DNA of 64,000 nucleotides from Alphaproteobacteria bacterium (GCA_012103325.1 WLWY01000001.1:1153653-1217652), one strand, 5' to 3'; counted from the first letter of the stretch, positions 21,923 to 42,033 are shown. Made by a program: numbers and translations. Notes: generated by a model from the sequence alone, not told the origin.

Positions 21923-23218
21923 CTAAGAGACCTTCCCGTACACAAGGTCGGGCAGGAACGTCACAATCTCCGGAAACAGCGAGATCAGCACGATCACCAC
22001 CACATAGGTGAGCAGGAACGGGATGACCGCGACCGATATTCGGTCGATGCCGAGATTCGTCAATCGCGCGGCAACGAACAAATTGGCGCCGACAGGCGGG
22101 GTCAAAAAACCGATCTCGCACGCGATGATCATCAGAATGCCGAACACGATCGGATCGATGCCGACGGACACCGCGATCGGCAGCATCAACGGCGTCAGCA
22201 AGATAATTTGCGCGATGGATTCCAGGAACATGCCCGTAATGATCAGAACAACCGAAATAACCATCAGAAGGATGAAGCTGTTGTCCGTGAAGCCGATCAG
22301 AAATTGGCCGACAAGCTCGGGCACATCCATCAGGCTCATCAACTCGCCGAACGCTTTGGCCGGCCCCACGATAATGAGCACCGCGCCGGAGATCATGGCG
22401 GTGGTCTTCAGGCAGGTCCGAATATCATCCATGGTGAGTTCGCGATAGATGAATTTGCCGACGATGAACGCGTACACCACCGCAACCGATGCGGCTTCGG
22501 TCGGGGTGAAGATGCCGGAATAGATGCCGCCGAGGATGACAAACGGTGCGCCGATCGCCCACTTGCCATCCCACGCCGCGTCCCAAAGTCTGCCGAACGA
22601 GAATGCAATGCCGGTATCGCCGCCATAGCCCCGTTTACGGGCGATCAACCAGGTGCAAAGCAACAGCAGGCTGCTCGCAAGGATGCCAGGAATAACGCCG
22701 GCCAGGAACAGGCGCGGGATCGAATTATCCGACACAATGCCGAAGATGATCATCAGATTGCTCGGCGGGATGAGGCTGCCAAGCGCCCCGCCCGACGCCG
22801 CGATGGCACCGCCGAACGCCGGATCGTAACGCTCGCGGATCATCGCGGGGATCATGACGGAGCCGATGGCCGCCGTGGTCGCCGGACCCGACCCGGACAG
22901 TGCTGCGAAGAAGGTACAGCCGAGAACCGCGACGAGACCGAGGCTACCCTTATAATTGCCGATCATCGATTGGGCGATGGCGACAATCCGTGTCGCCAAT
23001 CCGCCGCGTTCCATTAGCGACCCCGCAAAGACGAACAGGGGAACGGTCAGCAGCGGAAACGGTTCGACGCCGGTATACATCGCCTGCGCGATGGCGACGA
23101 AGGGAATATCGATCAGAAAGTAGCCGACCACGGTCGCGATGGCGACGGCGATGGGAATGGGAACGCCGATGGCGATGGCCAGCAGCAGCGCCCCGAACAT
23201 GAACCATACTTCATTCAT
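21923..23218 (-). CDS. dctM: TRAP transporter large permease subunit
   Basis: 431 aa, polytopic, DctM-like throughout; overlaps dctQ. Confidence 0.85.
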   Translation of the reverse strand: MNEVWFMFGALLLAIAIGVPIPIAVAIATVVGYFLIDIPFVAIAQAMYTGVEPFPLLTVPLFVFAGSLMERGGLATRIVAIAQSMIGNYKGSLGLVAVLGCTFFAALSGSGPATTAAIGSVMIPAMIRERYDPAFGGAIAASGGALGSLIPPSNLMIIFGIVSDNSIPRLFLAGVIPGILASSLLLLCTWLIARKRGYGGDTGIAFSFGRLWDAAWDGKWAIGAPFVILGGIYSGIFTPTEAASVAVVYAFIVGKFIYRELTMDDIRTCLKTTAMISGAVLIIVGPAKAFGELMSLMDVPELVGQFLIGFTDNSFILLMVISVVLIITGMFLESIAQIILLTPLMLPIAVSVGIDPIVFGILMIIACEIGFLTPPVGANLFVAARLTNLGIDRISVAVIPFLLTYVVVIVLISLFPEIVTFLPDLVYGKVS

Positions 23219-23738
23219 GGATCGAGACCTCGCCGTCGCGCGGTTCCATTAGCGGTTCGTCGAAGCGGATCCAGCGGTAATAGACTTGAATCAGCCGCAG
23301 GGTCATCAGACCAAAGCCGAACACCAGGCAGAGATAAGGCCATTTCTGCGCGATGCCGAGCACCGGCGACTCGAACGGCAGCGTCCACATGGAAAGATGA
23401 AGAAGCAGACTTTGATAGGTCAGGAAAATGGCGAAGATGAACCAGATCAGATCGCTGAACATCGTCATGGCGGTCGACATCTTGCCGGGAAACATCTGGA
23501 CCAGGTTCATCACCCGGATATGCGCACGCTCGCGCACCGCCCAGGACGTCGACAGATAGACCGACCAAAGCATCGCGTAGACGGCAATTTCGTCGGACCA
23601 GGACATCGGCGCGCTGAACACATAGCGCATGACGACCTGGAGAAAGACCAGAACGGTCATCACGACGACGCAGATACCGGCGATCACTTCTTCCGCACGG
23701 CTTTCAAGGAATGTCCAGATTCGGGCCGGTAAAGACAT
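23211..23738 (-). CDS. dctQ: TRAP transporter small permease subunit
   Basis: 175 aa with four transmembrane helices; positioned between dctP and dctM. Confidence 0.8.
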   Translation of the reverse strand: MSLPARIWTFLESRAEEVIAGICVVVMTVLVFLQVVMRYVFSAPMSWSDEIAVYAMLWSVYLSTSWAVRERAHIRVMNLVQMFPGKMSTAMTMFSDLIWFIFAIFLTYQSLLLHLSMWTLPFESPVLGIAQKWPYLCLVFGFGLMTLRLIQVYYRWIRFDEPLMEPRDGEVSIHE

Positions 23739-23845
23739 GCTTCTACCTTCGCGCGACGATCCGCCAAGAATGCATTAAAGAGCCGGCGCGGCGCCCCTGC
23801 AACCTGGGACACCGCGCCGGAACGCGTTGGTCTTGAAATTAGACC

Positions 23846-24838
23846 CTAGTTCGCTGCGTCGTTGATCGCCTTGATCAACTCCACATAGGCCGCACCCCGT
23901 TTCGCGGCAAAGGCGTCATGCACTTTCGCCGCAGCCGAGATAAACGGCTTCTTGTCCGGCTCGGTGAATTTGACACCAGATGCGATGAGCTTTTTCTTGA
24001 CGCCCGCAAGACCGGCCAGCGTGTGCTCGCGCGCCGCGGCAGCCGCGATATCGGCGGCCATTTGCATGGTTTCTTTTTGTGCCGGCGTCAGCTTCTGCAT
24101 GAACCTGTCGCTGACGAAGAACGGCGGTGCGAGCGCGAAATGCCCGGTCATCGCGACATGTTTCGCAACTTCATGGAATTTCTGCGCATAGATCACGTCG
24201 ATCGGAAGATCGCCGCCATCGACTGTGCCCGTCTGAACGGCCGTCAAGGTTTCCGACCAGGCCATCGGAACCGGATCGGAACCAAACGCCTTGTAGGTGT
24301 CGACCATGACGACATTCTTCGGCACGCGATATTTCAGCGGCGCGAAATCGGCAATGTTGTTGATCGCCTTTTTGGTGTTGTAGACGTGGCGGAACGAAAC
24401 CAAAGAAATCTTCACCAAGTGAACGCCGGCTTCCTTCGGCATATCGCCCCAGATCTTCTGGCCAACCGGGCCGTCTACGACCTTGATCGCATGCTCGTAG
24501 CTTTGCAGCATGTACGGCAGGACCAGCAGATCGATCTTCGGATAGAACGGACCGGCATTGTTTTGCGCGATCAGCGTGCCGTCCAGGGTACCGAGCTGAA
24601 GCTTTTTGAACATGTCCTGCTCGCCGCCCATCTTGAAGCAGCAATGCACCTTAACCTTGATTTCGCCGCCGGTGAGGTTCGTAAACCGCTCGGCGAACGT
24701 ATTCATGAAGGTCCCGTAGGGGTGCGCGTCACTTGTCGCATAGCCGATATTCATCAGCTTCTTCGCCGAGGCTGGCGCCAAGGCGATCATCAAGGACGCC
24801 GCCGCGATGGCGGCCCCCATTCCAAGTCTTCTTATCAT
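23846..24838 (-). CDS. dctP: TRAP transporter substrate-binding protein
   Basis: Signal peptide MIRRLGMGAAIAAASLMIALAPASA with a DctP-family body. The ORF track extends to 24877. Confidence 0.85.
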   Translation of the reverse strand: MIRRLGMGAAIAAASLMIALAPASAKKLMNIGYATSDAHPYGTFMNTFAERFTNLTGGEIKVKVHCCFKMGGEQDMFKKLQLGTLDGTLIAQNNAGPFYPKIDLLVLPYMLQSYEHAIKVVDGPVGQKIWGDMPKEAGVHLVKISLVSFRHVYNTKKAINNIADFAPLKYRVPKNVVMVDTYKAFGSDPVPMAWSETLTAVQTGTVDGGDLPIDVIYAQKFHEVAKHVAMTGHFALAPPFFVSDRFMQKLTPAQKETMQMAADIAAAAAREHTLAGLAGVKKKLIASGVKFTEPDKKPFISAAAKVHDAFAAKRGAAYVELIKAINDAAN

Positions 24839-24912
24839 AGATAGTCCTCCCTTCGATGGTTGATTAATGCCGGCCAATTATCGCTGGCCGCTAACAACGT
24901 TTACGTTCCTCC

Positions 24913-25983
24913 TCAAACACCACGGCTTGCGCCTTTCGGCGGCGCCGTCGTCTCTCTCACAATCAGTCCAACTTCGAGCTCCGTCATATCCGGTACGGCC
25001 TTGCCTTCGAACCGGGCAAGTAAATATTCCGCCGCCTTGCGGCCCATCAATTCCGACGGCACGGCCATCGTCGTCAGGGGCGGCGACAAATGTGCGGCCA
25101 GCGGCAAATCGTCGAATCCGACGATCGAGACGTCGCCGGGCACGCTCAGTCCCAGCGCCTGACACTCGAACAGTGCACCCATCGCCAGTACGTCATTACC
25201 GCAAACGACAGCCGTCGGCCGCGAATCGGAACCCATCAGGAGCCGCAGCGCCTCCCGCCCTTCGGCCACTTCGTAGCCGCGTTCGATCAACCGGTGCGAA
25301 GGCAGTTCAATATCCCAGTCCGCCAACGCGTCGCGCACGCCGACGATGCGGTCTCGCGCCCGATCGTTATGGGTGCTGATCCCGGCGATCATCGCAATAT
25401 CGCGGTGCCCAATCTCCAGCAGATAACGGGTCAGCCGATACGCGGCGAGCCGATTGTCGAACCCAACGGACGGATGCGGCCCGTCCAGGTGATACGTCCA
25501 GGTGGTAACGTAGGGCAGATCCTTCGCGCGTATCAGCTCGAACACTTCATCGCGATGGCTTTGACCAATCAACATCAAACCATCAACGCCGCGGCTCAAT
25601 AAACTGCGGGCGTGGCGCAGCGCATGATCCGGATCGTATTCGGAAATCGCAATCAAGAGCGTGTAACCGGACTCGTCGAGCCGTTGCTCGAACGCCTGTA
25701 AGCCGGTGGCGAAAATGGCGTTCGACAATGTCGAAATGATCGCGCCAACCGTGCTCGAACGCTGTGATGCCAACGTTCTGGCCGCACCATGCGGCACATA
25801 GCCCACCGCCTCGATCTCCGCCAGAACCCGTTCCCGCAAAGCCGGACTGACATCGCCCGGCCGGTTCAGAACTCGTGACACTGTTGCGGTTGAAACACCT
25901 GTCAGCCGTGCGACATCGCTCAAGGTCGGCTGCCTTCCGGGCCGAACTTGTAAGCGATTACACTGGTCCTTGTCGGGTTTCAT
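24913..25983 (-). CDS. LacI family transcriptional regulator
   Basis: N-terminal helix-turn-helix PTLSDVARLTGVSTATVSRVLN with a periplasmic-binding-protein-like effector domain. Transcribed divergently from the hisD-like/hyu operon. Confidence 0.85.
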   Translation of the reverse strand: MKPDKDQCNRLQVRPGRQPTLSDVARLTGVSTATVSRVLNRPGDVSPALRERVLAEIEAVGYVPHGAARTLASQRSSTVGAIISTLSNAIFATGLQAFEQRLDESGYTLLIAISEYDPDHALRHARSLLSRGVDGLMLIGQSHRDEVFELIRAKDLPYVTTWTYHLDGPHPSVGFDNRLAAYRLTRYLLEIGHRDIAMIAGISTHNDRARDRIVGVRDALADWDIELPSHRLIERGYEVAEGREALRLLMGSDSRPTAVVCGNDVLAMGALFECQALGLSVPGDVSIVGFDDLPLAAHLSPPLTTMAVPSELMGRKAAEYLLARFEGKAVPDMTELEVGLIVRETTAPPKGASRGV

Positions 25984-26108
25984 ATAGACTATCCACAAAG
26001 GACTATTCGTATCGTACTGTTTCTCATTAAAAAATTTTAATTCCTACCTGTCCAGACAAATTTTTCTTGACTTGCACAGGTTCCGCATGGCTCCAATGAG
26101 GTACGATA

Positions 26109-26122
26109 TGTAAGCGCTTACT
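26109..26122. promoter_or_regulatory. Candidate LacI-family operator
   Basis: TGTAAGCGCTTACT matches the LacI/GalR consensus TGNAANCGNTTNCA. It sits in the divergent promoter region between the LacI gene and the hisD-like gene. Confidence 0.55.
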
Positions 26123-26155: not shown

Positions 26156-27460
26156 ATGGCGATCCAATATTTAAAACGAGCGGCAAAAACATCCGCGACC
26201 GGTGAGGACGAAACCCGCCAAATCGTTGCCGATATGCTGGCGGAGATCGAACGCGACGGCGAAAGCGCAGCGCGCGCCTACGGCGTAAAACTCGATGATT
26301 GGGACGGCGATATCGAGGTCGGCTCGGATGCGATTGAAGCCGCTGCGCGCCAGGTTCCGGACCAGCTCAAGGACGATCTCAAGTTCGCCCATGACCGGGT
26401 GCGCGGCTTCGCCGAGCGGCAACGGGCCAGTATTGGCGAATTCGAGGCCGAACTGTCGCCGGGCCTGTGGGCCGGTCAACGCCTGATCCCCGTGCAAACG
26501 GCGGGCTGCTACGTTCCCGGCGGCCGCTACGCCCATGTCGCCTCCGCAATCATGAGCATTACGACCGCCAAGGTCGCCGGCGTCGAAAACGTCATCGCCT
26601 GTTCCGCGCCGAGCCAGGCGCACGGCGGCATTCATCCCGCCATCCTGTACACGATGGATATGTGCGGCGCCGACCACATCCTGGCTCTGGGCGGCGTGCA
26701 GGGTATCGCCGCCATGGCGTTCGGGCTGTTCACGGGCCGCAAGGCGAACATTCTGGTGGGGCCGGGCAACCGCTTCGTCGCGGAGGCCAAGCGGTTGCTG
26801 TTCGGCCGCGTCGGCATCGACCTCTTCGCCGGCCCGACGGAAATCCTGATCATCGCGGACGGGTCGGCGGACCCCGCTATTGTCGCCAACGATCTGGTCG
26901 GCCAGGCCGAGCATGGCCCCGACTCGCCAGCCTGGCTGGTCACGACCGATCACGGTTTGGCGGAAAAGGTCATGGCGCGGATGCCCGGCCTGATCGCGGC
27001 GCTGCCGGAAGTACAGCGTAACGCCGCCGAGGCCGCCTGGCGGGATTACGGCGAGGTCGTACTCTGCGATTCAGCCGAGGAAGCCGCCGCGGCCAGCGAC
27101 GAATACGCCCCGGAACACCTCGAACTGCAAACCACCACCGATTCGTGGTACGTCGAACGGCTGACGAATTACGGCTCGCTGTTCGTCGGCGAGGAAACCA
27201 CCGTGGCGTTCGGCGACAAATGTTCCGGCACCAACCACATCCTACCGACCAAGGGCGCCGGCCACTACACCGGCGGCCTGTCGGTGCATAAATTCATCAA
27301 AATCGTCACCACTCAGCGTATGACCAAAGAAGCCAACGAAGAAGTTGCCGCCGTCACCGCCCGCATCTCGCGGCTCGAAGGCATGGAAGGCCATGCGCGC
27401 ACCGGCGACGTTCGTCTGGCGAAGTATTTCCCGGGAAAGAACTTCGACCTTTCGCCGTAG
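26156..27460 (+). CDS. Histidinol dehydrogenase (HisD) family NAD-dependent dehydrogenase; likely a catabolic paralogue
   Basis: 434 aa, similar to HisD throughout. Its context (TRAP transporter, LacI regulator, hydantoinase genes) argues against a role in histidine biosynthesis. Confidence 0.75.
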   Translation: MAIQYLKRAAKTSATGEDETRQIVADMLAEIERDGESAARAYGVKLDDWDGDIEVGSDAIEAAARQVPDQLKDDLKFAHDRVRGFAERQRASIGEFEAELSPGLWAGQRLIPVQTAGCYVPGGRYAHVASAIMSITTAKVAGVENVIACSAPSQAHGGIHPAILYTMDMCGADHILALGGVQGIAAMAFGLFTGRKANILVGPGNRFVAEAKRLLFGRVGIDLFAGPTEILIIADGSADPAIVANDLVGQAEHGPDSPAWLVTTDHGLAEKVMARMPGLIAALPEVQRNAAEAAWRDYGEVVLCDSAEEAAAASDEYAPEHLELQTTTDSWYVERLTNYGSLFVGEETTVAFGDKCSGTNHILPTKGAGHYTGGLSVHKFIKIVTTQRMTKEANEEVAAVTARISRLEGMEGHARTGDVRLAKYFPGKNFDLSP

Positions 27461-27505: not shown

Positions 27506-30500
27506 ATGGCAACGGAAACGCAGCGCTATCGTCTCGGCTTCGATATCGGCGGCACCTTCACCGACTTCGTGTTGGTGGACGCCACGGAAAGCCGCATCCA
27601 TCTGCATAAATGCCTGACGACGCCGGCCGACCCCTCGGTCGGCGCCCTGGACGGCATGACCGAACTGCTGGCAACAGCCGGCATTCCCCTCGCCGCCGTC
27701 GACCACATCGTCCACGGCACGACCCTGGTGACGAACGCGATCATTGAACGCCGCGGCTGCCAGATCGGTTTCCTGACGACCAAGGGCTTTCGCGATACGC
27801 TCGAAATGGGGACCGAGCAGCGCTACGACATCCATGATCTGTTTCTCAAGTTTCCGGCACCGCTGGTCGCGCGGCGGCATATCCGTGAGATCGACGAGCG
27901 TATCGCCTTCGACGGCACGGTCCACACGGCGATGGACAACGATCAGGCGCGCCATGCGATCCACGACCTTGTCGACAACGGCGCCGAGGCCATCGCGGTG
28001 TGCTTTCTGCACGCCTATCAAAACCCGGCGCATGAACGCCGGATACGGGATCTCATCCGGGCCGAATTTCCGGATCTCTCGGTTTCCATTTCAAGCGACG
28101 TGGACCCGGCGCTGAAGGAATTCGAACGGTCGTCGACCACCGTCGCCAACGCCTATGTCCAGCCGTTGATGACGCGCTACGTCGAGAAGCTCCAGACCAC
28201 CTTACGCGAAACCGGTTTCGAGGGACGGTTCCATCTGATGCAGTCGTCCGGCGGGCTGACCGCGCCGGAGACGGCGACCGCGTTCCCGGTCCGCTTCCTC
28301 GAGTCCGGCCCCGCCGGCGGCGCGCAGGCCACCGCCTTCATCGGCGAGGCTATCGGCCACAAGGACATTCTGTCCTTCGACATGGGCGGTACCACGGCAA
28401 AGGCTTGCCTGATCCAGAACGGCAAGCCGGATATCGCGGCGATGCTCGAGGCCGGACGGATACACCGTTTCAAGAAGGGCAGCGGATTGCCGATCCGCGC
28501 GCCCGTCATCGACATGATCGAGATCGGCGCCGGTGGCGGGTCGATTGCGAGAGCCGACTCGTTGGGGCTGCTCAAGGTCGGTCCGGACAGTGCCGGGGCC
28601 GATCCGGGGCCGGCCTGCTACGGCCAGGGCGGCGATGCACCGACCGTCACCGACGCGAACCTGCTGCTGGGCTATCTCGACCCGGACTATTTCCTCGGCG
28701 GCCGGATGACCCTTGACCGCGCCGCAGCAGAAAGCACCGTCGCGCAAATCGCAGCCCCTTTGAAGCTCTCGGCACTGGAAGCCGCCTGGGGCATATACGA
28801 TCTTGTGGCCGAGAACATGGCCGGCGCTGCCCGGGTTCACATCGTCGAGAAGGGCGGCGACCCGCGCCGCTTCGCCATGGTCGCGATGGGTGGTGCCGGT
28901 CCCCTGCATGCTGCCCGTGTCGCGCGTAAGCTTGGCGTTTCGAACGTCATCGTGCCGCCGGCCTCGGGCGCCGCCTCCGCACTCGGCTTCCTGGCCGCAC
29001 CGGTCGGTTACGAAATTTCCCGCTCACTGCCCATGGCGCTCGACCGTGCCGACTTTGCGGCAGCGAATGCCGCTCTGGCGGAAATGGAAACGGCCTGCCG
29101 CGCACGGTTGCTGGAAGCCGGCGGCGGCGAGGACAGCATCACGGTGGAACGCTTCGCCGAGATGCGCCTGCAAGGACAGATGCACGAAATTACCGTGCCG
29201 CTCCCCGAAGCGCCGCTAGATGGCCAATCCGTCGCAACGCTGTCCGCAACGTTCGAAGAAGAATACACAAGGCTTTTCACCCATCTCTATGACGGCGCTC
29301 GCATCGAAATCATCAATTGGCGGCTGCGCTGCACCAGCCCGGCCCCAATACTGTCGACGCGGATGGAGAGCGAAACGACCGTAGACGCAAAAAAGGGAAC
29401 GCGCCAAATCTATTCCCCGGAGGCACGCCGCATGACCGAAGCGTCGGTCTATGACCGTTATGCCTTGCAGCCGGGCGACACGGTTCCCGGCCCCGCCGTA
29501 ATCGAAGAGCGCGAAGCCACGACCATCGTGCCCACCGATGGTACGGTGACCGTCGACGCCGCGCTCAATTTGCAGCTTCACCTGGACCCGGCGCAGGACG
29601 CCGAGATCGTTATCGCGTCCGACACCGCGCTCGACAAAGCCATTGCGCGGATCGAGGCCGATCCGATCGGGTTCGAGATCATGTGGAGCCGGCTCATCAA
29701 CATCACCGAAGAATGCTGGCATACGGTGATCCGCACGGCCTTCTCACTGATCATCGGAGAGGCACAGGATTTCGCCTGTGAAATTCTAGACGCCAAAGGC
29801 AATCAGATCGCCCATTCCCCGCGGGCGATGCCGGTGTTCAACCTCACCCTGCCGGTCGCGGTGAACGCGATGATCGAACGCCACCCGCCGCAGACGCTGG
29901 TCGAGGGGGACGTGCTGATCACCAATGACCCCTGGCTTTGCGCCGGTCACCTGTTCGATATTGCTATCGCCGTGCCGGTGTTTCGCGAGCGACGGATCGT
30001 CGCTTTCGTTGGCATCGTCGGGCATGTCGCCGATATCGGCGGCACGACGGACAAGCTGAACGCGCGGGAAATCTACGACGAGGGCATCCAGATTCCGCCG
30101 ATGAAGCTGTTCAAGGCAGGCGAACCCAACGAGGACCTGTTCCAGCTTCTCGGCGAAAACATCCGCCGGCCGGATCAGGTGCTGGGCGATGTCCATGCCC
30201 TGGTTGCCGCCGGCGTCACCGGCGCGAAGCGCATCAACGAGTTCATGGAAGAATACGGGATGCACGACCTGGAGGCACTGGCAACGGTCGTTCAGACCCG
30301 CGCCGAGACGGCGATGCGCAAGGCGATCAGCGCACTGCCGGACGGCGTCTACGAGCATGTCGTGCAGGGCGACGGGATCGACGAGGTGATGACCTACCCG
30401 ATCAGCGTCTCGGTTCAGGGCGACGAAATCGCCGTCGATTTCGAGGGCGCACCGCCGCAGACCGAGCGCGGCGGCAGCAATTGCACGCTCAGCTACACGA

Positions 30501-32913: not shown

Positions 32914-32983
32914 ATTGATGGAGGGAATCGAACCCTCGACAGCTGAAGCCTAAGTTCAGTGCTCTTCCTCTGAGCTACATCCG
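32914..32983 (-). tRNA. tRNA-like element (class I, anticodon UAG) with imperfect acceptor stem; possible pseudogene
   Basis: D-arm, anticodon arm (CTGAA-CTTAGGC-TTCAG) and T-arm (GAGGG-TTCGATT-CCCTC) are canonical. Acceptor pairs 2:71 and 3:70 are mismatched, there is no CCA, and the variable loop is short despite a Leu-type anticodon. It abuts the CCA of the neighbouring tRNA. Confidence 0.45.
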
Positions 32984-33059
32984 TGGGGGCCATGGCAGGA
33001 GTCGAACCCGCGACATCCGGATTCGAAATCCGGTGCTCTTCCAGCTGAGCTACATGGCC
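32984..33059 (-). tRNA. tRNA with anticodon UCG (Arg by the genetic code), CCA encoded
   Basis: Acceptor GGCCATG/CATGGCC, D-arm GCTC-AGCTGGAA-GAGC, anticodon arm CCGGA-TTTCGAA-TCCGG, T-arm GCGGG-TTCGACT-CCTGC, discriminator C, CCA. The UCG anticodon is uncommon in bacteria. Confidence 0.75.
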
Positions 33060-33534: not shown

Positions 33535-35034
33535 CTATTTCTTGCGCCGCTTGTTGTACTCGATGCCGAGGAAAATCGCCGGAATGATGCCCAGCAGGTA
33601 GGAGAAGAACAGGACCCAGAACCCGTCCTGGAAGCTAAGCGCCGTGGCCTGTGCTTCGATCATCTGGCCGAGGTAGTGCAGCCCGCCAGATGTATGCACG
33701 TTCTCCGGCACCCCCGCCTCGCGGAAAATTTGCGCGACGCCACGCAGCAGGCTCGCGCTGGCCGAACTTTGATCGGATTGCATCGCGGAAAGCTGCTCGC
33801 TGTGAAATTCGATACGCCAATCGACGAAGACGACCCAGATATTGGTGCCGATCGACCCGGCGAGATGGCGGCAGAAGTTTACCGTGCCCCCTCCGGAATT
33901 CAGTTTCTCCGGCGGCAACGTCTTCAGCGCCGTGTTCATGATGAAGGGCTGTACGAACGCCGTCGCCCATCTTCCCACCAATCCGTATGCGACGATCTTG
34001 AGAAACGACGTGTTGGCATCGGCGAAGGCAAAGGGCAGCGCGCCGAACGCCAGAAACGTCAGGCCGAAGATCAGCGCCTTGTGCGGCGCGATCCTGTCGG
34101 ACAGGCGGCCGCTGATCGGCATGATGATGACGGCGACCATCATCGCCGGCATCAAAGCGAGGCCGGCGTCCAGCGGCGTCATGTTCTGCACAAGCTGGGC
34201 CGCGACCGGGATCGCGTAGACGGTCGCGAAATTACCGACTGCGGACAAGGCCGTGACAAGAACCGCCAGGGTGAACATCTTGTTTTTGAACAGGCTGAGG
34301 TCCAACAAGGACGCCGCCTCACGCCGCTGCGACAGCAGAAATCCCACACCGGCCAGCAAAGCGACAACGAACAACCCCACGATATAGTCCGACACCCAGC
34401 CGTCGCGGTGCCCGTTCGAGATCGCCGTGACCAGGCAATACATCGACAGCACGATCAGCGTATAACCGAGCCAATCGAACGCAACCGCCTCTTCGTTGCG
34501 CTCGGCCGGCATGAACATCAGCCCCAACGGCACGCAGACCGCCACCAGCACCAACGGCATGAAGAAGATCGCGCGCCAATCGAACGCTTCGATCGCGATG
34601 CCGCCGAAGACCGGGCCGACCGACGCCGCGAAGACCAGCCCCATCGCGTAGAGGCCCAAGGCCTGCCCGCGCTTACCCTCCGGAAACACCCGGAACAAAG
34701 TCACCATGATCAGGGGCTGGATGATCCCGGCGGCGGCGCCCTGCAAGACGCGGCCGATCACGATCATGTCAAACGTCTCCGCCGCACCGGCAACGACGCT
34801 GCCAATCGTGAAGAGGACCAGCGTCGCGGTGTATCCGTAGCGCTGCCCAAAAACCGAAACGGCCCAGGCGTTCAAGAGCTGGCCGGTCGTCATCGCGATA
34901 TTGAACGCGGTCGCCATCAGTTGCACTTCGCTCTGGCTGACACCGAACGCGCCAATCACATCGGGGACCGCGACATTCACAATCGTGCTCGCGATGACCA
35001 TGGTGAACGCGGCCAACATGCCGGTGGCCGTCAC
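33535..35034 (-). CDS. MFS transporter, DHA2 (EmrB/QacA-like, 14-TMS) family
   Basis: 499 aa; N-terminus MLAAFTMVIASTIVNVAVPDVIGAFGVSQSEVQLMATAF is typical of DHA2 efflux pumps. Confidence 0.8.
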   Translation of the reverse strand: MTATGMLAAFTMVIASTIVNVAVPDVIGAFGVSQSEVQLMATAFNIAMTTGQLLNAWAVSVFGQRYGYTATLVLFTIGSVVAGAAETFDMIVIGRVLQGAAAGIIQPLIMVTLFRVFPEGKRGQALGLYAMGLVFAASVGPVFGGIAIEAFDWRAIFFMPLVLVAVCVPLGLMFMPAERNEEAVAFDWLGYTLIVLSMYCLVTAISNGHRDGWVSDYIVGLFVVALLAGVGFLLSQRREAASLLDLSLFKNKMFTLAVLVTALSAVGNFATVYAIPVAAQLVQNMTPLDAGLALMPAMMVAVIIMPISGRLSDRIAPHKALIFGLTFLAFGALPFAFADANTSFLKIVAYGLVGRWATAFVQPFIMNTALKTLPPEKLNSGGGTVNFCRHLAGSIGTNIWVVFVDWRIEFHSEQLSAMQSDQSSASASLLRGVAQIFREAGVPENVHTSGGLHYLGQMIEAQATALSFQDGFWVLFFSYLLGIIPAIFLGIEYNKRRKK

Positions 35035-35259: not shown

Positions 35260-36222
35260 ATGAATCTGAATGACATCACCATCCACTTCGCCCATCCCGC
35301 CTATCAACTCGCCGCGGCGCTCGACCGCCGCAACACCGGGATCAAGAGCTTTCAAACCTGGACACGCGAGGAAATGCGCGACCGGGTCGGCGACGGCGAT
35401 GTCATGGTGCTGTCCGGCTATTGGGACAACGCGCTGCTGCCCAACGCTGACAAGCTAAAATTCATCCAGGTCTGCGGCGCGGGCTACGACGCCTTCGATG
35501 TCGATGCGATCCGCGCGAAGGGTGTCCGTCTGGCCAATGCCAGCGGCTGCAATGTCAACGCGGTCAGCGACCACGCCATGGCGCTACTGCTCGCCCTCAC
35601 CCGCCAAATTCATACCGGCCGGGACAATCAGCACAAGGCGCATTGGCGCGGCATGATCTCCGACCTGACGAAGCGCGAAGATGAGCTGCCCGGCAAGACA
35701 ATGCTGATTTTCGGGCTCGGCAAGATCGGCGGCCGCCTCGCAAAGCTGGCGAAGGCGTTCGATATGACCGTGATCGGACTCAAACGGGATACGTCGTCGC
35801 CGGTCGAGCATGTCGACGAACTGCACCCTTCTGCCGCCTTCATGGAACATCTGCCCCGCGCGGACGTCGCCGTCCTGACCTGCCCGCTAACAGAAGAAAC
35901 CCGCAATATCGTCGACGGCACAGCGCTCGCCGCGATGAAGCCCTCGTCCTACCTGGTCAATGTCGCCCGCGGCGGCTGCGTTGACGAGCCGGCCCTTATC
36001 GAAGCGCTGCAAGGGAACGCCATCTCTGGCGCCGGCATCGACGTCACGGTGGAGGAACCGCTCGCCGAAACCTCGCCGCTCTGGTCGATGGAAAACGTCG
36101 TCCTAACCCCGCACACCGGCGGAGAGACCCGGATGTACGAAGAAAACGTCATCGATTACCTGCTCGAAAACCTCAACCGCCTGTCCCGCGGTGAGGCCGA
36201 ACTCTTCAATCAGGTGATCTAG
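35260..36222 (+). CDS. D-isomer-specific 2-hydroxyacid dehydrogenase family protein
   Basis: 320 aa. NAD-binding region GLGKIGGRLAKLA and a catalytic RGG...E...H pattern (VARGGCVDE...PHTGGET). Confidence 0.8.
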   Translation: MNLNDITIHFAHPAYQLAAALDRRNTGIKSFQTWTREEMRDRVGDGDVMVLSGYWDNALLPNADKLKFIQVCGAGYDAFDVDAIRAKGVRLANASGCNVNAVSDHAMALLLALTRQIHTGRDNQHKAHWRGMISDLTKREDELPGKTMLIFGLGKIGGRLAKLAKAFDMTVIGLKRDTSSPVEHVDELHPSAAFMEHLPRADVAVLTCPLTEETRNIVDGTALAAMKPSSYLVNVARGGCVDEPALIEALQGNAISGAGIDVTVEEPLAETSPLWSMENVVLTPHTGGETRMYEENVIDYLLENLNRLSRGEAELFNQVI

Positions 36223-36225: not shown

Positions 36226-36807
36226 TTACGCCCCCAGGAACGCATCGCGGAATCGCACCCGGCATTCTGCGGGGTCGAAGTTACGCTTGTAGACGGACGG
36301 CGCAGTCGGAAGCACGCGGGCCAACAGAAAGCGGGGGCCAGACGCTGTTTTCAGAAACGCAGCGCCGTCCTTCATCTGGTCCGGGTTGGAAATCGTCATC
36401 GTCGACGGCAGACCGGAGCCCTTCGCGATGGCTTCGAGATCCGTGGCGCGGGACGTATGACCGGTTTGCCCCCCGGTTTCGCCATGCTGCAGATTGTCGA
36501 TACAGACGATGCTGAGATTGGCGGGCGCCATCGACGCAACCGTGATCAGCGACCCGATACCCATCAGCAACTCACCATCGCCGGTCACGACCACCACGTC
36601 GCGGTCCGGCGCGTTCAACGCCACGCCGAGCCCCATGGGCACGGCTGCGCCCATCGTGCCCGCCATCGTAAACAGGTTCGCACCGTCATCGGTAAACGCA
36701 GCCGTATCCTTTGCCGCGCCGGCCAGGCCGCTGATAAAGAGCGCCTCGTCCGGACTGTCGAAAAGGGCCGGCAGCAGCTCGCGGCGTTCGATTGTCGGTT
36801 CTGTCAT
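36226..36807 (-). CDS. comE: Sulfopyruvate/phosphonopyruvate decarboxylase beta subunit (TPP-binding C-terminal half, ComE-like)
   Basis: 193 aa. TPP-binding GDG...N motif (VVVVTGDGELLMGIGSLITVASMAPANLSIVCIDN). Confidence 0.7.
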   Translation of the reverse strand: MTEPTIERRELLPALFDSPDEALFISGLAGAAKDTAAFTDDGANLFTMAGTMGAAVPMGLGVALNAPDRDVVVVTGDGELLMGIGSLITVASMAPANLSIVCIDNLQHGETGGQTGHTSRATDLEAIAKGSGLPSTMTISNPDQMKDGAAFLKTASGPRFLLARVLPTAPSVYKRNFDPAECRVRFRDAFLGA

Positions 36808-36821: not shown

Positions 36822-37346
36822 CTAAAACGCTTTCGCGCCCAAAAATTTCTGCGACAGGACCAACGCTGCCGACTGGCTGCCCTTCATTGCGGCTGAAATC
36901 GCCGCCGCCGCCGTCTTTTCCAGGTCTTCCGGCTCGTCCACCTTGAAGGTTAGCACGCCCATGGTTTCGAAGATCGGTTCGACGGCCTGGCCCATCGGAT
37001 ACTGCCAGGGGTTCTGCTCGCCGAAGTCACCCCGCATCGAGACGACCATTAGCAGCGGGAAGCGTCCGCCATTAACTAGCGACAGATAATTGACGCAATT
37101 GCCGACGCCGCTCGACTGCATGCACAGCACCGCGCGCTTGCCGACCAGATCGGCGCCGGCGCAAACCGCGATACCTTCTTCTTCGGTGGTCAGCAGAACG
37201 GAACGGGTCTCGTTGCTGGCATCGACATGTTCGATAAGGCGCTTGTTGCCGGCATCCGGCACATAGGCGAACAGATCCACGCCCGCGTCCAGCATCTGGC
37301 GAAAGAGCGTCGCGGACCAATCGTCGTCCACGGATTGTTGAGTCAT
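36822..37346 (-). CDS. comD: Sulfopyruvate/phosphonopyruvate decarboxylase alpha subunit (ComD-like)
   Basis: Matches the N-terminal pyrimidine-binding half of a TPP enzyme (FAYVPDAGNKRLIEHV...CMQSSGVGNCVNYL). The start is placed at MTQQSVDDDW with a GAGGGA Shine-Dalgarno; it lies immediately upstream of comE. Confidence 0.7.
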   Translation of the reverse strand: MTQQSVDDDWSATLFRQMLDAGVDLFAYVPDAGNKRLIEHVDASNETRSVLLTTEEEGIAVCAGADLVGKRAVLCMQSSGVGNCVNYLSLVNGGRFPLLMVVSMRGDFGEQNPWQYPMGQAVEPIFETMGVLTFKVDEPEDLEKTAAAAISAAMKGSQSAALVLSQKFLGAKAF

Positions 37347-37492
37347 TGGGTTATCCCTCAGGAAATAGGAAGGCCGCGTTATATCAGACGAAGCGGCGCG
37401 ACGAAACCGCGACCGGGTCGATTGCTTTGACGTCACTGGACCGCGCTTATAAGCTTATCGCTTCCTGTCCTTTTCCCGCCACCGGTGAATCC

Positions 37493-39136
37493 ATGACCGA
37501 CGCGTTCGATCCCGTAACCCTGGAGATATACTGGAGCCGCCTGATCTCCATCGCGGACGAGTCCGCGGCGGCGCTCCTGCGCACGTCCTTTTCGACCATC
37601 GTCCGCGAGTCGAACGATTTCGGTACCGTCCTGATGGACGCCAACGGCGACTCGCTTTCGGAGAATACGGGCGGCATTCCGTCCTTCTCGGGCATCCTGC
37701 CGCGCACGCTGAAACACTTCCTGGCACGCTTTCCCAAGGAAACCTGGAAGCCCGGCGACTGCGTCATCACCAATGACCCGTGGCTGGCGACGGGGCACCT
37801 GCCCGACATCACTATGGCAATGCCGATCTTTCATAACGGCACATTGGTCGGGTTTTCGGGATCGATCGCCCATTCGCCGGATATCGGCGGATCGCTGTGG
37901 TCCGCGGACTGCCGCGAGCTGTTCGAAGAAGGGCTGCGCATCCCGCCGACGAAATTCCTGATCGAAGGCGAACCGAACGAGTTGCTGCAGGAAATCATCC
38001 TCAGCAACGTGCGGCTTCCGGATCAGGTCTTGGGCGACCTCAACGCGCAGGTCACGGCGAACCAAGTCTGCGGCCGGCGGCTGCACGAATTTTTGGACGA
38101 TTCCGATCTGGCAGATTTGTCGAGCCTGTCGAGCACCCTGCAACAGCGTGCGGAGAGCGCGATGCGCCGCGCCATCGAGGAGGTACCGGACGGCGTCTAC
38201 CACGCGACACTCGATGCCGACGGCTTCGACGAGGACGAAACCCATATCGAATGCACGATCACGGTCAAGGGCTCGGACCTGAACATCGACTATGCCGGCA
38301 CGTCGCCGCAGATCAATCGCGGCCTCAACACCGTGATGAACTACACCTATGCCTACTCCGCCTACCCGATCAAATGCGCGCTCGACCCGAGCACGCCGCG
38401 CAACGAAGGATCCTACCGTCCCGTCACCGTGGACGCGCCCGAAGGCTGCATCCTCAACCCGCGCTACCCGGCGCCCTGTAACGCGCGCCAGCTGACCGGA
38501 CACCTGCTTGCCGGCGTCATCTACCGCGCGCTGGCGGAAGCGATTCCGGACCGCATACTGGCCGACAGCGGCAGCGCGCCCTCGATGCGCGCCGTCTTCA
38601 ACGGGCTCGACCCGCATGGCAACCGCTTCTCGCAGATTCTGTTCGCCAGCGGCGGCATGGGCGCCAGCGCGCATAAGGACGGGCTGCCAACGACGGCGTT
38701 CCCGACCAATTCCGGCGCCGGCAGCATCGAAGCGTTCGAGAGCGTGTCGCCGCTGATCGTCTGGAAGAAGGAGTTCCGCGTCGATTCCGGCGGCGCCGGT
38801 CAGTTCCGCGGCGGCTTGGGGCAGGAATGCGAGATCGAGGTCCGTTCCGCCGAACCCTTGCAGCTGTCGCTGCTGTCGGACCGCTGGCGGCACCCCGCGA
38901 CGGGTGTGCTGGGCGGCGAACACGGGGCGACCAGCAGGATCAGTTTCAGCGACGGCACCATACCGCACCAGAAATCGCGCACGACCATCGGGCCCGGCAT
39001 GCGGCTGCACATGGAATATGCCGGTGGCGGCGGGTATGGCGACCCGAAAACCCGCGATCCTGAGCTGGTCCTCGACGACATCAAGAACGGCTATATCACC
39101 GCGGACGCCGCAAAACGCGACTACGACGTCTCCTAA
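37493..39136 (+). CDS. hyuB: Hydantoinase B / oxoprolinase family protein
   Basis: Starts MTDAFDPVTLEIYWSRLISIADESAAALLRTSFSTIVRESNDFGTVLMDANGD. About 548 aa. Confidence 0.85.
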   Translation: MTDAFDPVTLEIYWSRLISIADESAAALLRTSFSTIVRESNDFGTVLMDANGDSLSENTGGIPSFSGILPRTLKHFLARFPKETWKPGDCVITNDPWLATGHLPDITMAMPIFHNGTLVGFSGSIAHSPDIGGSLWSADCRELFEEGLRIPPTKFLIEGEPNELLQEIILSNVRLPDQVLGDLNAQVTANQVCGRRLHEFLDDSDLADLSSLSSTLQQRAESAMRRAIEEVPDGVYHATLDADGFDEDETHIECTITVKGSDLNIDYAGTSPQINRGLNTVMNYTYAYSAYPIKCALDPSTPRNEGSYRPVTVDAPEGCILNPRYPAPCNARQLTGHLLAGVIYRALAEAIPDRILADSGSAPSMRAVFNGLDPHGNRFSQILFASGGMGASAHKDGLPTTAFPTNSGAGSIEAFESVSPLIVWKKEFRVDSGGAGQFRGGLGQECEIEVRSAEPLQLSLLSDRWRHPATGVLGGEHGATSRISFSDGTIPHQKSRTTIGPGMRLHMEYAGGGGYGDPKTRDPELVLDDIKNGYITADAAKRDYDVS

Positions 39137-39154
39137 AGACAGGTGGATGAAAGA

Positions 39155-41239
39155 ATGAACAAACGTATCCGCATCGGGGTCGATGTCGGCGGGACCTTCA
39201 CGGATTTCGTGCTGGTCGATGAAGAACGGGACCTGATCTATACGGGCAAGCGTTTGACGACACCGGACGACCCGAGCGCCGCAATCCTCGACGGCACGGC
39301 ACGGCTGCTTACCGAAGCGGGCACGGAACCGGCGCAAGTCCACAGCATCGTCCACGGCACGACCCTGGTCACCAACACGATCATCGAACGCAACGGCGCG
39401 AAGATCGGGCTGATCACCACCAAGGGCGTGCGCGACACCTTGGAGATGGGCAAAGAGATCCGCTACGACCTCTACGATCTGTTCCTCGAAGCGCCGCCCA
39501 CCCTCGTCCCGCGCCACCTGCGCCGGGAAGTCGCGGAGCGTGTCGCGCCGGACGGTGAGATCCTGCTCGATTTCGATGCGGATGCGTTCCGCGCCACAGC
39601 CCTCGACCTCATCGAAACCGAGAAGGTGGAAGCGATTGCCGTCTGCTTCATGCACGCCTACCGCAACCCGGATCATGAGCGCCAAGCCAAGGCGATTCTG
39701 ATGGAGGAGTTCGACGCGACGCCGTTCACCATCTCCTCCGATGTCGCACCGGAAATCCGCGAGTTCGAACGCACCAGCACCGCCTGCGCCAACGCCTATG
39801 TGCAACCGCGCATGCAGAGCTATCTGCAGCGGCTCGAAACCGAACTGCAGGCGCAAGGCCATTCGGGCGCGCTGTACGTCATGTTGTCCGGCGGCGGCAT
39901 CACCACTGTCCAGTCGGCCCGCGAATTTCCCATCCGTCTCATCGAGTCGGGTCCAGCGGCAGGTGCCATGGCCGCGTCGTACTACAGCACCCTGACCGAC
40001 ACCGAGAACCTGATCTCCTTCGACATGGGCGGCACCACGGCGAAGATGTGCCTGATCGATGGCGGCCAGCCCGACCGCAAGCATGATTTCGAAGCCGGCC
40101 GGGTGCGCCGCTTCCAGAAGGGCTCCGGCCTGCCGCTCAAAGTCTCCGTCGTCGACATGATCGAGATCGGCGCCGGCGGCGGCAGCCTTGCCAATGTCGA
40201 CAATATGGGTCTGCTGAAGGTCGGGCCGCGCAGCGCCGGCTCCGCGCCGGGGCCGGTCTGCTACGGGCTCGGCGGCACCGACCCGGCCGTGACCGACGCC
40301 GACCTCTATCTCGGCTACCTCAACCCCGACTACTTCCTCGGTGGGGAGATGAGGCTCGACATGGCGACGGTGGAACAGGCGATCGAGGAGAAGATCGCCA
40401 AACCGCTCGGCCTCTCGACCCTGGACGCCGCCATCGGCATCCACAACATCGTCAACGAGAACATGGCCGCCGCGACGCGCATGCATCTGGCCGAGAAGGG
40501 CCGCGACCCACGGCGCTATCAGATGATCGCCTTCGGCGGTGCCGGGCCGGTGCATGCTTACGGCCTCGCGCAAATCCTGAAGCTCAAGCGGCTGATCGTG
40601 CCGCTCGGTGCCGGCGTGACCTCGGCGCTGGGATTCCTCGTTGCGGCACCGGCCATCGATTATGTACGCAGCTACGTCTCGCGGCTGGAGCAGCTCGACT
40701 GGGGGCATCTCAACACGCTGTTCAAGGAGATGGAGGAAGAGGCCAAGGGACTGCTCGTCGATGCCGGCGCCCAGCCCGAGGAAATTACCCTGACGCGGAC
40801 GGCGGACATGCGGCATATCGGGCAGGGATTCGAGATTGCGGTGCCGGTTCCGGAGGGCGAATTAACACCCGGTCTTCTACCGGGTATTCGGGAGGCGTTT
40901 TTCCAGTCCTATCACCGGCTGTTCGAGCGTACGGTTCGGGATGTTTCCATTGAATCAATGAGTTGGCGTCTTGCCGCGAGTGCACCAGTGCCCAACATCA
41001 AACTTGCGTTCGGCGGACAGTCGTCGGAAACGGGGGAAGCGCTGAAAGGCACCCGCCAGGTCTACTTCCCAGAGACTGGATTCGCCGCCTGCGACGTCTA
41101 CGACCGCTACGCGCTGCACCCGGGCGACAGCTTCACCGGCCCGGCGGTCGTCGAGGAGCGCGAATCGACCACGGTGATCGGCCCCGGCGGTTCGGTCACC
41201 GTCGACCCATACCGCAATTTGATCTGTGCACTGCCCTAA
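39155..41239 (+). CDS. hyuA: Hydantoinase A / oxoprolinase family protein
   Basis: MNKRIRIGVDVGGTFTDFVLVDEE with an ASKHA-fold body. An alternative start lies at 39143. Confidence 0.85.
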   Translation: MNKRIRIGVDVGGTFTDFVLVDEERDLIYTGKRLTTPDDPSAAILDGTARLLTEAGTEPAQVHSIVHGTTLVTNTIIERNGAKIGLITTKGVRDTLEMGKEIRYDLYDLFLEAPPTLVPRHLRREVAERVAPDGEILLDFDADAFRATALDLIETEKVEAIAVCFMHAYRNPDHERQAKAILMEEFDATPFTISSDVAPEIREFERTSTACANAYVQPRMQSYLQRLETELQAQGHSGALYVMLSGGGITTVQSAREFPIRLIESGPAAGAMAASYYSTLTDTENLISFDMGGTTAKMCLIDGGQPDRKHDFEAGRVRRFQKGSGLPLKVSVVDMIEIGAGGGSLANVDNMGLLKVGPRSAGSAPGPVCYGLGGTDPAVTDADLYLGYLNPDYFLGGEMRLDMATVEQAIEEKIAKPLGLSTLDAAIGIHNIVNENMAAATRMHLAEKGRDPRRYQMIAFGGAGPVHAYGLAQILKLKRLIVPLGAGVTSALGFLVAAPAIDYVRSYVSRLEQLDWGHLNTLFKEMEEEAKGLLVDAGAQPEEITLTRTADMRHIGQGFEIAVPVPEGELTPGLLPGIREAFFQSYHRLFERTVRDVSIESMSWRLAASAPVPNIKLAFGGQSSETGEALKGTRQVYFPETGFAACDVYDRYALHPGDSFTGPAVVEERESTTVIGPGGSVTVDPYRNLICALP

Positions 41240-42033
41240 TCGCTGTTGCGTAAGTAAACGACCCAGTAAACCAGCGCCACTAGCACGCTGCCGCCGACGA
41301 TATTGCCGAGCGTCACCGGCACGAGGTTGGCAAGGAAGGACGTCATCGTCACCCCCTCCGCCCCGGCGAACCAACCGACCGGGATCAGATACATGTTCGC
41401 CACCGAATGCTCGAAGCCGAGGGCGACGAAGGCGGTGATCGGGAACAGGATGGCGAGGATCTTGCCGCTGACCGAATGCGCCGCCATGCACAGCCACACC
41501 GCGAGGCAGACCAGCGTGTTGCACAGCATGCCGCGCACGAACGCCTCGGCGAAGGGCAAGGCCACCTTGGCGCTCGCAATATTGCGCGCCGTTGTTGCGA
41601 CCGCGCCGTCGCCCAACTCCAGGGTGCCCGACCATGATACGAACACCGCCGTCGCCACCGCCCCGATGAAATTCCCGACATAGACCAGCAGCCAGTTGCG
41701 CAACAACCGCGCGGTCGTGATGTGACGGCTCGCCCAGGCCATGACGATCAGGTTGTTGCCGGTGAACAGCTCCGCCCCTGCAACGACAACCAACACCAGG
41801 CCGAGCGAAAACGCCGCCCCGCCGAGCAGACGCGCCGGCCCGAACCCCAGCCCGGACTCTGTGATCGCGACGGTGAAGAACATGCCGCCGAACGCGATGA
41901 ACGCCCCCGCCAGCACGCCCAGCACCAGCGTCTTCTGCACGGAAAGCGCGGCCTTGGTGACGCCGGCCTTCTCCACCCGCGCCGCGACTTCAGCGGGAGC
42001 ATAGGCATCGATTTGGTTGGGAGACAATTGCAT
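41236..42033 (-). CDS. Formate/nitrite transporter (FNT) family channel
   Basis: 265 aa, similar to FocA/NirC throughout (…LGVLAGAFIAFGGMFFTVA…FTGNNL…). Convergent with, and overlapping, the end of hyuA. Confidence 0.8.
   Translation of the reverse strand: MQLSPNQIDAYAPAEVAARVEKAGVTKAALSVQKTLVLGVLAGAFIAFGGMFFTVAITESGLGFGPARLLGGAAFSLGLVLVVVAGAELFTGNNLIVMAWASRHITTARLLRNWLLVYVGNFIGAVATAVFVSWSGTLELGDGAVATTARNIASAKVALPFAEAFVRGMLCNTLVCLAVWLCMAAHSVSGKILAILFPITAFVALGFEHSVANMYLIPVGWFAGAEGVTMTSFLANLVPVTLGNIVGGSVLVALVYWVVYLRNSD

Follow-up and report, generated by a model that had tools for sequence, protein, structure and literature searches.

Does a run of adjacent catabolic genes encode one pathway, or several activities that happen to lie side by side? 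The question is raised by a 64,000-nt stretch of DNA from an Alphaproteobacteria bacterium (GCA_012103325.1, WLWY01000001.1:1153653-1217652), called the window here and used for all coordinates without a locus number. The initial annotation had described positions 21923-42033 as a single accessory locus combining tripartite ATP-independent periplasmic (TRAP) uptake, a HisD-family dehydrogenase, two hydantoinase systems, a split ComDE-like decarboxylase, a 2-hydroxyacid dehydrogenase and an FNT channel. Genes were called from an open reading frame (ORF) listing and Pfam and NCBIfam scans of the 64-kb window, and tRNA genes were identified with ARAGORN and Rfam. Every gene family named before was recovered by Pfam or NCBIfam. 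As one locus, the interval did not hold together: it consists of about eight transcription units on alternating strands, broken up by an SPFH gene, two tRNA genes and an EmrB-type pump that had gone unmentioned. We put at about 0.65 the probability that it contains an HpsR-controlled uptake and oxidation module for a C3 sulfonate of the 2,3-dihydroxypropanesulfonate (DHPS) type, which would be a variant of known systems, and that the other genes are lineage-specific neighbours. DHPS and its relatives among the C3 sulfonates serve as major currencies in which carbon and sulfur pass between marine bacteria and phytoplankton or animal hosts.

The HisD-like protein is encoded at 26156-27460 (+ strand; PF00815, residues 13-421). 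It shares 59% full-length identity with the biochemically and structurally characterised HpsN of Cupriavidus pinatubonensis (CpHpsN) and 60% with HpsN of the canonical Leisingera locus. In the PDB it scored 562 bits (8v35) and 521 bits (8wwe), compared with at most 246 bits for HisD structures. A G-R-Y-A/S-H motif separates HpsN from HisD, which has G-S-A-P-L there, and His126 of CpHpsN binds the sulfonate (PMC11382572). Alignment with CpHpsN placed GRYAH at residues 123-127 of the window protein. The Zn ligands Gln248, His251, Asp352 and His411 of CpHpsN, its Lys353 and its catalytic Glu318 and His319 (PMC11382572) all have equivalents (Q250, H253, D354, H413, K355, E320 and H321, respectively), and Ser226 is replaced by Thr. 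The earlier suggestion of HpsN is borne out by identity, motif, active-site residues and PDB scores alike, and we assign the protein as HpsN, a predicted NAD+- and Zn-dependent (R)-DHPS (or L-cysteinolate) 3-dehydrogenase. A true histidinol dehydrogenase was ruled out by the sulfonate motif together with the higher scores to HpsN than to HisD structures. A phosphonate pathway is not favoured, because HpsN carries the sulfonate-specific His and no pepM was found in the window; the alternative naming of the ComDE-like pair as a phosphonopyruvate decarboxylase loses ground on the same two points.

The closest HpsN homologues outside the clade of this genome (79-81% identity; 80 reference-genome loci) lie in hpsN-hpsO-hpsP(-suyAB) clusters. 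HpsO or HpsP is present at 50 of the 80 HpsN loci, and no homologue of either was detected in the window or at the clade loci. In PMC11382572 HpsN loci were picked by neighbouring hpsO and hpsP, so surveys would have missed the present architecture.

Divergent from hpsN lies a gene for a LacI-family protein (24913-25983 or 25998, − strand; Pfam LacI and Peripla_BP), which is 45% identical to HpsR of C. pinatubonensis and 48% identical to HpsR of Leisingera. The near-consensus operator reported earlier at 26109-26122 (TGTAAGCGCTTACT) is real, has one mismatch to the palindrome and lies about 35 bp upstream of hpsN. Pattern search revealed a second operator of the same type at 25949-25962 (TGTAAGCGATTACA), which extends over the 5′ end of hpsR. 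When two mismatches at most were allowed, these two sites next to hpsN and hpsR were the only occurrences of the motif TGTAAGCGCTTAC(A/T) in the window; at three mismatches two further matches appeared in unrelated places, and no HpsR-type operator was found near the 2-hydroxyacid dehydrogenase, comDE, hyuB2A2 or FNT genes described below. The site at 26109-26122 aligned with the palindrome upstream of hpsN in Cupriavidus and at two of the compared loci, L010 and L013. Cupriavidus, Leisingera, L010-L012 and L028 also have the motif in the intergenic region next to hpsR, ahead of hpsN or hpsK, and paired sites about 160 bp apart were kept in L013, L142 and L144. Sister loci without the LacI gene lacked the motif. 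Regulator and operator both match canonical hps loci, and we are confident in predicting that the LacI protein is an HpsR-type repressor of this divergon with two operators. From operator placement, the predicted HpsR regulon consists of hpsN with a fused hyuAB gene on one side and hpsR-dctPQM-phyH on the other. The operator motif should be transferable for predicting HpsR regulons.

The genes following hpsR on the minus strand encode a TRAP transporter: dctP for the solute-binding protein (SBP; 23846-24877, start probably at 24838; PF03480), dctQ for the small permease (23211-23738; PF04290) and dctM for the large permease (21923-23218; PF06808, E 2e-111). DctP was only 26% identical to HpsK of Leisingera. 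Its best PDB matches were 4pdd, 4pdh, 4nq8 and 4p9k (E 1e-41 to 1e-45), the RpHpsK structure 24gc was the weakest among the matches listed, and the protein fell outside the sequence cluster of the characterised RpHpsK, BwHpsK or SAR11_0864. Several unrelated SBP clusters are linked to hps genes (PMC13335735). A metagenome scan yielded 45 loci with DctP proteins 56-92% identical to that of the window. Genes for EamA and a TauE/SafE sulfite exporter were located directly upstream of dctP at 16 of the approximately 26 loci with enough upstream sequence; one locus (L131) had the order dctPQM-hpsN(74%)-SDR, and another (L099) carried a divergent LacI gene (47% identical) with an operator-like site. 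This TRAP subtype is repeatedly tied to sulfonate catabolism, since its orthologues adjoin TauE, hpsN or an HpsR-like LacI gene. The uptake element of the initial annotation can thus be specified as sulfonate-linked, and by sequence and neighbourhood it is a subtype distinct from the characterised HpsK type.

A PhyH-family Fe(II)/2-oxoglutarate (2OG) dioxygenase gene (21155-21922, − strand; PF05721, E 6e-27) directly adjoins dctM, with which it shares its strand, and falls just beyond the interval first noted. We infer co-transcription of the TRAP genes with phyH, which would be the final gene of an hpsR-dctPQM-phyH unit; phyH also follows dctM in L013. The protein keeps the HxD...H iron triad, with the HxD motif as WHQD and a distal His, and no close characterised relative of it was found. 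In tblastn searches against plasmids the best matches were 39% (DctP) and 37% (PhyH) identical, and their contexts were uninformative.

A GC-rich hairpin of 15 bp lies between dctP and dctQ (23783-23820, − strand; terminator-like scan). It was the only boundary given by the promoter and terminator scan, in which sites were fewer than in shuffled controls, and it may be an intra-operon attenuator raising the binding protein over the permeases. TRAP proteins sharing about 70% identity with their window counterparts are also encoded at L119 (5460-12864) and 15 similar metagenome loci (L106-L130) from an abundant estuarine and marine lineage. There, genes for an SDR, a 3-hydroxyisobutyrate-dehydrogenase-like protein, Sel1, EamA and TauE precede dctPQM; this is an uncharacterised type of sulfonate locus without HpsN.

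Downstream of hpsN, after 45 bp, a single ORF of 1292 aa (27506-31384, + strand; four Pfam domains) encodes a fused HyuA-HyuB. The initial annotation had postulated two split-pair hydantoinases. This is correct for the second, which is made up of a separate HyuB (hyuB2, 37493-39136, + strand, divergent from comD; PF02538, E 2e-150) and HyuA (hyuA2, the ATPase subunit, 39143-41239, + strand; Pfam), and incorrect for the first, the fused enzyme. The Hyu enzymes consist of HyuA (ASKHA ATPase) and HyuB domains. They share Hydant_A_N, Hydantoinase_A, Hydant_A_C and Hydantoinase_B with the ATP-dependent lactamases, namely CapAB (6yra), N-methylhydantoinase (7hk5) and the HyuAB/OplBA hydantoinase and valerolactamase pairs of Pseudomonas. 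The B-then-A order of the second pair matches what we take to be the order of oplBA. An acetone-carboxylase-type reading was rejected because no gene for the small gamma subunit of that enzyme is adjacent and similarity to the lactamases is higher. The best PDB match of the fused enzyme was the fused N-methylhydantoinase 7hk5 (584 bits over 1265 residues).

Unlike the characterised lactamases, however, the Hyu enzymes scored far below the equivalog cut-offs. The fused protein was below every such cut-off in NCBIfam, the caprolactamase models gave 560 and 520 bits (CapA) and 207 and 246 bits (CapB) against a cut-off of 1000 each, and the closest NCBIfam model of HyuA2 was caprolactamase alpha, at 520 bits. 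No equivalog-level match to caprolactamase, acetophenone carboxylase or N-methylhydantoinase was obtained. A fused hyuAB next to hpsN was found only in this clade, at three of the 80 reference-genome HpsN loci and additionally at L093, L142, L144 and L149 (members with the two genes adjacent include L008, L009, L013, L093, L142 and L144). In every clade member the two genes lie on one strand, 45-92 bp apart. Elsewhere, orthologues of the fused protein (67-74% identity) were spread across many taxa as free-standing genes with unrelated neighbours such as peptide-type or NMT1-type ABC transporters, an M20 peptidase and Rieske oxygenases, and without HpsN. Because they are free-standing, the function of HyuAB is suggested to be conserved and independent of sulfonates. 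No link between a hydantoinase or oxoprolinase and HpsN, DHPS, sulfolactate or sulfonate catabolism was found in the literature. HyuB2 was 57% identical to a Variovorax HyuB encoded in a hyuB-hyuA-dehydrogenase-atuA cluster, and in L093 and L148 hyuB2A2 is followed by genes for a beta-lactamase-family hydrolase, CMD and SDR. The joining of both hydantoinases in one pathway does not stand, as the predicted HpsR regulon takes in the fused enzyme but not the second pair, and orthologues of the fused enzyme are free-standing elsewhere; hyuB2A2 is a unit separate from the HpsR module. Judged from these matches and contexts, the Hyu enzymes most likely use ATP to hydrolyse lactams or hydantoins, an activity that would have nothing to do with sulfonates.

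The module was compared with three known systems. The Roseobacter-type locus on the Leisingera caerulea plasmid NZ_CP081081 (hpsR-hpsKLM-hpsN-hpsO-hpsP-comDE-slcD) has in common with the window the LacI-type HpsR, the same palindromic operator, TRAP uptake, HpsN, and a split thiamine pyrophosphate (TPP)-dependent decarboxylase and a 2-hydroxyacid oxidoreductase nearby. In contrast to Leisingera, the window lacks HpsO and HpsP, its binding protein is not of the HpsK type, its ComDE-like genes are not co-oriented with hpsN, an enzyme of the D-2-hydroxyacid dehydrogenase family is found instead of the FMN-dependent SlcD, and the regulon additionally takes in the PhyH dioxygenase and the fused HyuAB. 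The hpsRNOUPsuyAB cluster of C. pinatubonensis (PMC11382572; L001) also has divergent hpsR and hpsN, an operator at a similar distance (about 30-40 bp) upstream of hpsN and an HpsN with all the active-site residues. Uptake there is by the MFS transporter HpsU rather than by TRAP, and HpsO, HpsP and SuyAB are present in Cupriavidus and absent from the window. The cysteinolate pathway of Bilophila and Desulfovibrio litoralis (HpsN-CuyC-CuyA-CuyB; PMC12814064) relies on a member of the HpsN family whose binding residues are the same, and members of this family can oxidise L-cysteinolate to L-cysteate (PMC12814064). Unlike that pathway, the window has no CuyA, CuyB or CuyC, and its setting is an aerobic alphaproteobacterium. 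Homologues of xsc, suyAB, cuyA, tauE and pepM were not found within the 64 kb, in agreement with the initial annotation, which had noted that Xsc, SuyAB and PepM were missing. The module differs from known hps systems in its TRAP subtype, in lacking HpsO, HpsP and any known desulfonating lyase, and in having PhyH and the fused HyuAB in its predicted regulon.

From these data the following mechanism is proposed. The core unit, at about 21.1-31.4 kb, would be a divergon governed by the HpsR-type LacI repressor through two TGTAAGCGCTTACA-like operators. A C3 sulfonate would enter through the TRAP transporter of the non-HpsK subtype; (R)-2,3-dihydroxypropanesulfonate is the likeliest candidate for the ligand, and L-cysteinolate is the second. 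HpsN would then oxidise the primary alcohol in two NAD+-dependent steps to (R)-sulfolactate (or L-cysteate). At the level of sequence, three elements of this scheme are established, namely the identity of HpsN, the HpsR-like regulator with its operators and the association of the TRAP subtype with sulfonates. Because the locus has no HpsO/HpsP epimerisation pair and no known desulfonating lyase, C-S cleavage would follow one of three routes. Xsc, SuyAB or CuyA may be encoded elsewhere in the genome. Cleavage might instead follow conversion by the neighbouring 2-hydroxyacid dehydrogenase and ComDE-like decarboxylase, which we consider possible though doubtful. Alternatively, it could be oxygenolytic and carried out by the PhyH-family dioxygenase; sister genomes have TauD- or SsuD-like oxygenases upstream of hpsN instead.

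According to the initial annotation, one pathway would run through the whole interval, with HpsN forming sulfolactate, the 2-hydroxyacid dehydrogenase (2HADH) sulfopyruvate and ComDE sulfoacetaldehyde, Xsc (as in the 'Xsc pathway' of PMC11382572) being supplied from elsewhere, the FNT channel exporting sulfite and the hydantoinases feeding in a cyclic precursor. Such a pathway now appears unlikely, although the Leisingera locus does unite HpsR, TRAP, HpsN, ComDE and a sulfolactate oxidoreductase. The 2HADH gene (35260-36222, + strand; D-isomer-specific, PF02826 and PF00389) had no NCBIfam equivalog match. It is followed by a tandem split TPP pair with 14 bp between the genes, a ComE-like TPP-binding beta subunit with a TPP_enzyme_C domain (193 residues; 36226-36807, − strand) and a ComD-like alpha subunit with a TPP_enzyme_N domain (174 residues from the ATG at 37346; 36822-37346, − strand). 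Sulfopyruvate decarboxylase models were the best NCBIfam matches of both subunits, ahead of phosphonopyruvate decarboxylase, and 2HADH-ComED stays near hpsN, despite local rearrangements, in the five clade members sequenced far enough to show it (L008/L148, L093, L144 and L149). However, both scores were below the cut-offs (ComD, TIGR03845, 125.9 bits against 147.95; ComE, TIGR03846, 126.9 bits against 221.5), and identity to the Leisingera subunits was 29% for ComD and 33% for ComE. Orthologues of the pair (65-72%) occur with a dienelactone-hydrolase-type gene or alone, without sulfonate neighbours, and remoter homologues (40-50%) on Bradyrhizobium and Deinococcus plasmids lie beside PrpD, CoA-transferase, aldehyde dehydrogenase and PxpA genes. 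The pair belongs to a separate subfamily (40-69% identity) found in other contexts and is probably not orthologous to the catabolic ComDE beside hpsN and slcD. Low identity, sub-cut-off scores, the missing operator at 2HADH, comDE and hyuB2 and the contexts of the orthologues together speak against naming it a sulfopyruvate decarboxylase. Contexts of 2HADH homologues pointed in no clear direction and were given no weight, neither that of a 52% identical Thioclava protein, encoded beside amino-acid ABC transporter and aminotransferase genes, nor that of a 36% identical one from Haloprofundus. By position, 2HADH is a candidate (R)-sulfolactate dehydrogenase; position is likewise what suggests that 2HADH and the ComDE-like pair convert sulfolactate to sulfoacetaldehyde, and with sequence and context arguing against orthology we give this step perhaps one chance in three. 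The FNT gene (41236-42033, − strand, convergent with hyuA2; PF01226; TIGR00790, above cut-off) encodes a full-length FNT fold that scored 189 bits to E. coli FocA (PDB 3kcu) and 223 against a cut-off of 290 for the FocA equivalog, and it keeps the equivalent of FocA His209 in an FEHS motif. Unlike focA, it has no pfl or fdh neighbour. It was absent after hyuA2 in all three relatives where this position is visible (L093, L144 and L148), and among the relatives compared it occurred in this genome only. The FNT protein is FocA-like and not a conserved member of the cluster, which speaks against a sulfite exporter. The family names ComDE-like and FNT do not by themselves warrant the labels sulfopyruvate decarboxylase and sulfite exporter. 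That no paper was found to connect hydantoinases with sulfonate catabolism also counts against a single pathway.

The fused HyuAB and the Fe(II)/2OG dioxygenase could also be new enzymes of C3-sulfonate catabolism that replace HpsOP and SuyAB, for example through oxygenolytic desulfonation of DHPS or sulfolactate and an ATP-dependent step. Both lie in the predicted HpsR regulon, the dioxygenase retains its iron triad, no clade locus encodes HpsO, HpsP or SuyAB, and sister operons have the order TauD-(SsuD-like)-TauD-HpsN-HyuAB with short gaps. The wide distribution of HyuAB orthologues without HpsN, and the restriction of the hpsN-hyuAB pairing to a single clade, argue in the opposite direction, and to our knowledge no chemistry joins an ATP-dependent lactamase to DHPS or sulfolactate. 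That the HpsR regulon of this clade has exchanged HpsOP and SuyAB for Fe(II)/2OG or flavin oxygenases and the fused HyuAB, with uptake through an uncharacterised TRAP SBP cluster, seems improbable. If the co-regulated dioxygenase and HyuAB did act on the sulfonate, this would be a new, O2-dependent desulfonation route for DHPS, sulfolactate or cysteinolate and the first sulfonate role of a fused HyuAB; otherwise the locus still gives a second sulfonate-linked TRAP subfamily, associated with TauE and HpsN. A more serious competitor, which we nevertheless hold only tentatively, is that the region is a mosaic accreted next to a tRNA-Ala gene. Adjacency beyond hpsR-TRAP-hpsN would then be meaningless, and the Hyu, 2HADH and ComDE-like proteins would serve unrelated lactam and 2-oxoacid catabolism. 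In agreement with such a mosaic, variable cargo begins at tRNA-Ala in every relative compared, L093 has transposase genes separating tRNA-Ala from the cluster, several genes come and go (SPFH and two tRNAs in the window and L013 only, FNT in the window only, the MFS gene missing from L009), and outside the clade every component also occurs in a setting of its own. Yet hpsN and hyuAB remain close together on one strand throughout the clade, the order 2HADH-ComED-HyuBA survives several rearrangements, and the functional categories parallel those of the canonical hpsN-comDE-slcD locus. The uptake and oxidation module itself has several points to answer. Its source is a metagenome-assembled genome of an uncultured organism, and the case is built on sequence; no desulfonating enzyme was identified in the window; and the operator search was limited to three mismatches, so that a divergent site near comDE would escape it. 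The HpsN of Bilophila, with identical binding residues, prefers L-cysteinolate (PMC12814064), so HpsN does not fix the substrate. Co-transcription of hpsN with the fused hyuAB is inferred from the 45-bp gap and the lack of a predicted terminator, and their pairing, being confined to one clade, may be functional or accidental. All of these weigh against the HpsR-controlled module.

Some features of the ComDE-like and 2HADH genes and their homologues deserve separate mention. A block of about 25 nt (GGAAGGCCGCGTTATATCAGA; 37360-37384) between the divergent comD and hyuB2 has hardly changed among four relatives, unlike its flanks, which diverge, and it is a candidate promoter or regulator site of this unit. 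A Haloprofundus salinisoli plasmid (L151, 2806-8954) carries genes for a TAXI-type TRAP transporter, an HpcH aldolase, a cupin and a ComDE-like pair, with divergent Fe-alcohol dehydrogenase and 2HADH genes, so the pairing of ComDE-like proteins with 2HADH occurs in a distant lineage too. Split ComDE-like decarboxylases recur on the Bradyrhizobium plasmid (L091, 9387-10582) and the Deinococcus plasmid (L092, 7453-8594) with PrpD/MmgE, CaiB-type CoA-transferases, aldehyde dehydrogenase and lactam-opening genes of the PxpA or urea-amidolyase-like type, possibly an uncharacterised pathway from a lactam through a 2-oxoacid to an aldehyde.

The order hpsN-hyuAB-(MFS)-2HADH-comED-hyuB2A2 was kept in all close relatives whose sequence extends that far, and in one clade only. 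The whole block is inherited together in this single clade of uncultured marine Alphaproteobacteria. The LacI and TRAP genes are upstream of hpsN in the window, L013, L142 and L144. TauD-like genes are directly upstream of hpsN in L008, L009, L093 and L148, an SsuD-like flavin monooxygenase gene is also found in L008/L148, and these TauD-bearing sister loci have neither the LacI gene nor the operator. The TauD-like genes, in L008 together with the SsuD-like gene, were mapped at 7021-9976 in L008, 8120-9974 in L009 and 6716-8591 in L093; they share the strand of hpsN-hyuAB and immediately precede it. When the 21-kb region was compared with plasmids by megablast, only short matches of 71-80% were obtained, through which the Cupriavidus hpsN and Variovorax hyuBA contexts were reached.

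The first 16 kb of the window consist of housekeeping genes (addAB, trxA, folC, accD, trpABF, pyrF, rpsA, cmk and aroA). The tRNA-Ala(GGC) gene downstream of aroA (16243-16318, + strand; ARAGORN and Rfam) marks the left edge of the variable region, and its counterparts lie at 6806-6881 in L008, 1685-1760 in L013 and 697-772 in L093. The cargo following it differs: in the window it encodes a PEP-CTERM protein, an amidohydrolase and CobW, whereas L008 has TauD-like genes there and L093 has transposase genes. The region looks like a tRNA-linked plasticity zone. At the other end, a PAS histidine kinase gene directly follows hyuA2 in L144 (3628-7604), whereas about 14 kb (41236 to about 55900) separate the two in the window. 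These contain genes for the FNT channel, a beta-lactamase-family protein, CMD, SDR, an unknown ORF, an amidohydrolase, a CoA-transferase, a response regulator and a molybdenum hydroxylase.

Three insertions within the interval had not been mentioned in the initial annotation. An SPFH/Band-7 protein gene (31431-32570, − strand; PF01145) is followed by tandem genes for tRNA-Arg(TCG) and a 73-nt tRNA-like Leu(TAG) (32912-33059, − strand), which lie between it and a gene for a DHA2/EmrB-type MFS efflux pump (33535-35034, − strand; TIGR00711, 308 bits, above the cut-off of 230). The SPFH gene is absent from L008, L093 and L144. The tRNA pair was found only where the SPFH gene was found, in L013 at 13669-13817. 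We regard the SPFH gene, the tRNA pair and the gene for the FocA-like FNT as passengers. Most relatives carry the pump, which is probably unrelated to the pathway. Rfam scanning of the window returned three tRNA genes only and no riboswitch or other regulatory RNA. Bacterial tRNA-Leu is expected to have a long variable arm; the tRNA-like Leu(TAG) lacks it, has two mismatched acceptor-stem pairs and scored 55.8 bits in Rfam. A sub-threshold match (29.9 bits) to YrlA, a Y RNA-like RNA, spans both tRNAs.

Between hyuA2 and the PAS histidine kinase gene, 45607-47793 holds ORFs of 728 and 582 residues on opposite strands without a Pfam match, in a segment that varies between relatives. A complete transposase gene of the IS66 family was located at 61626-63137.

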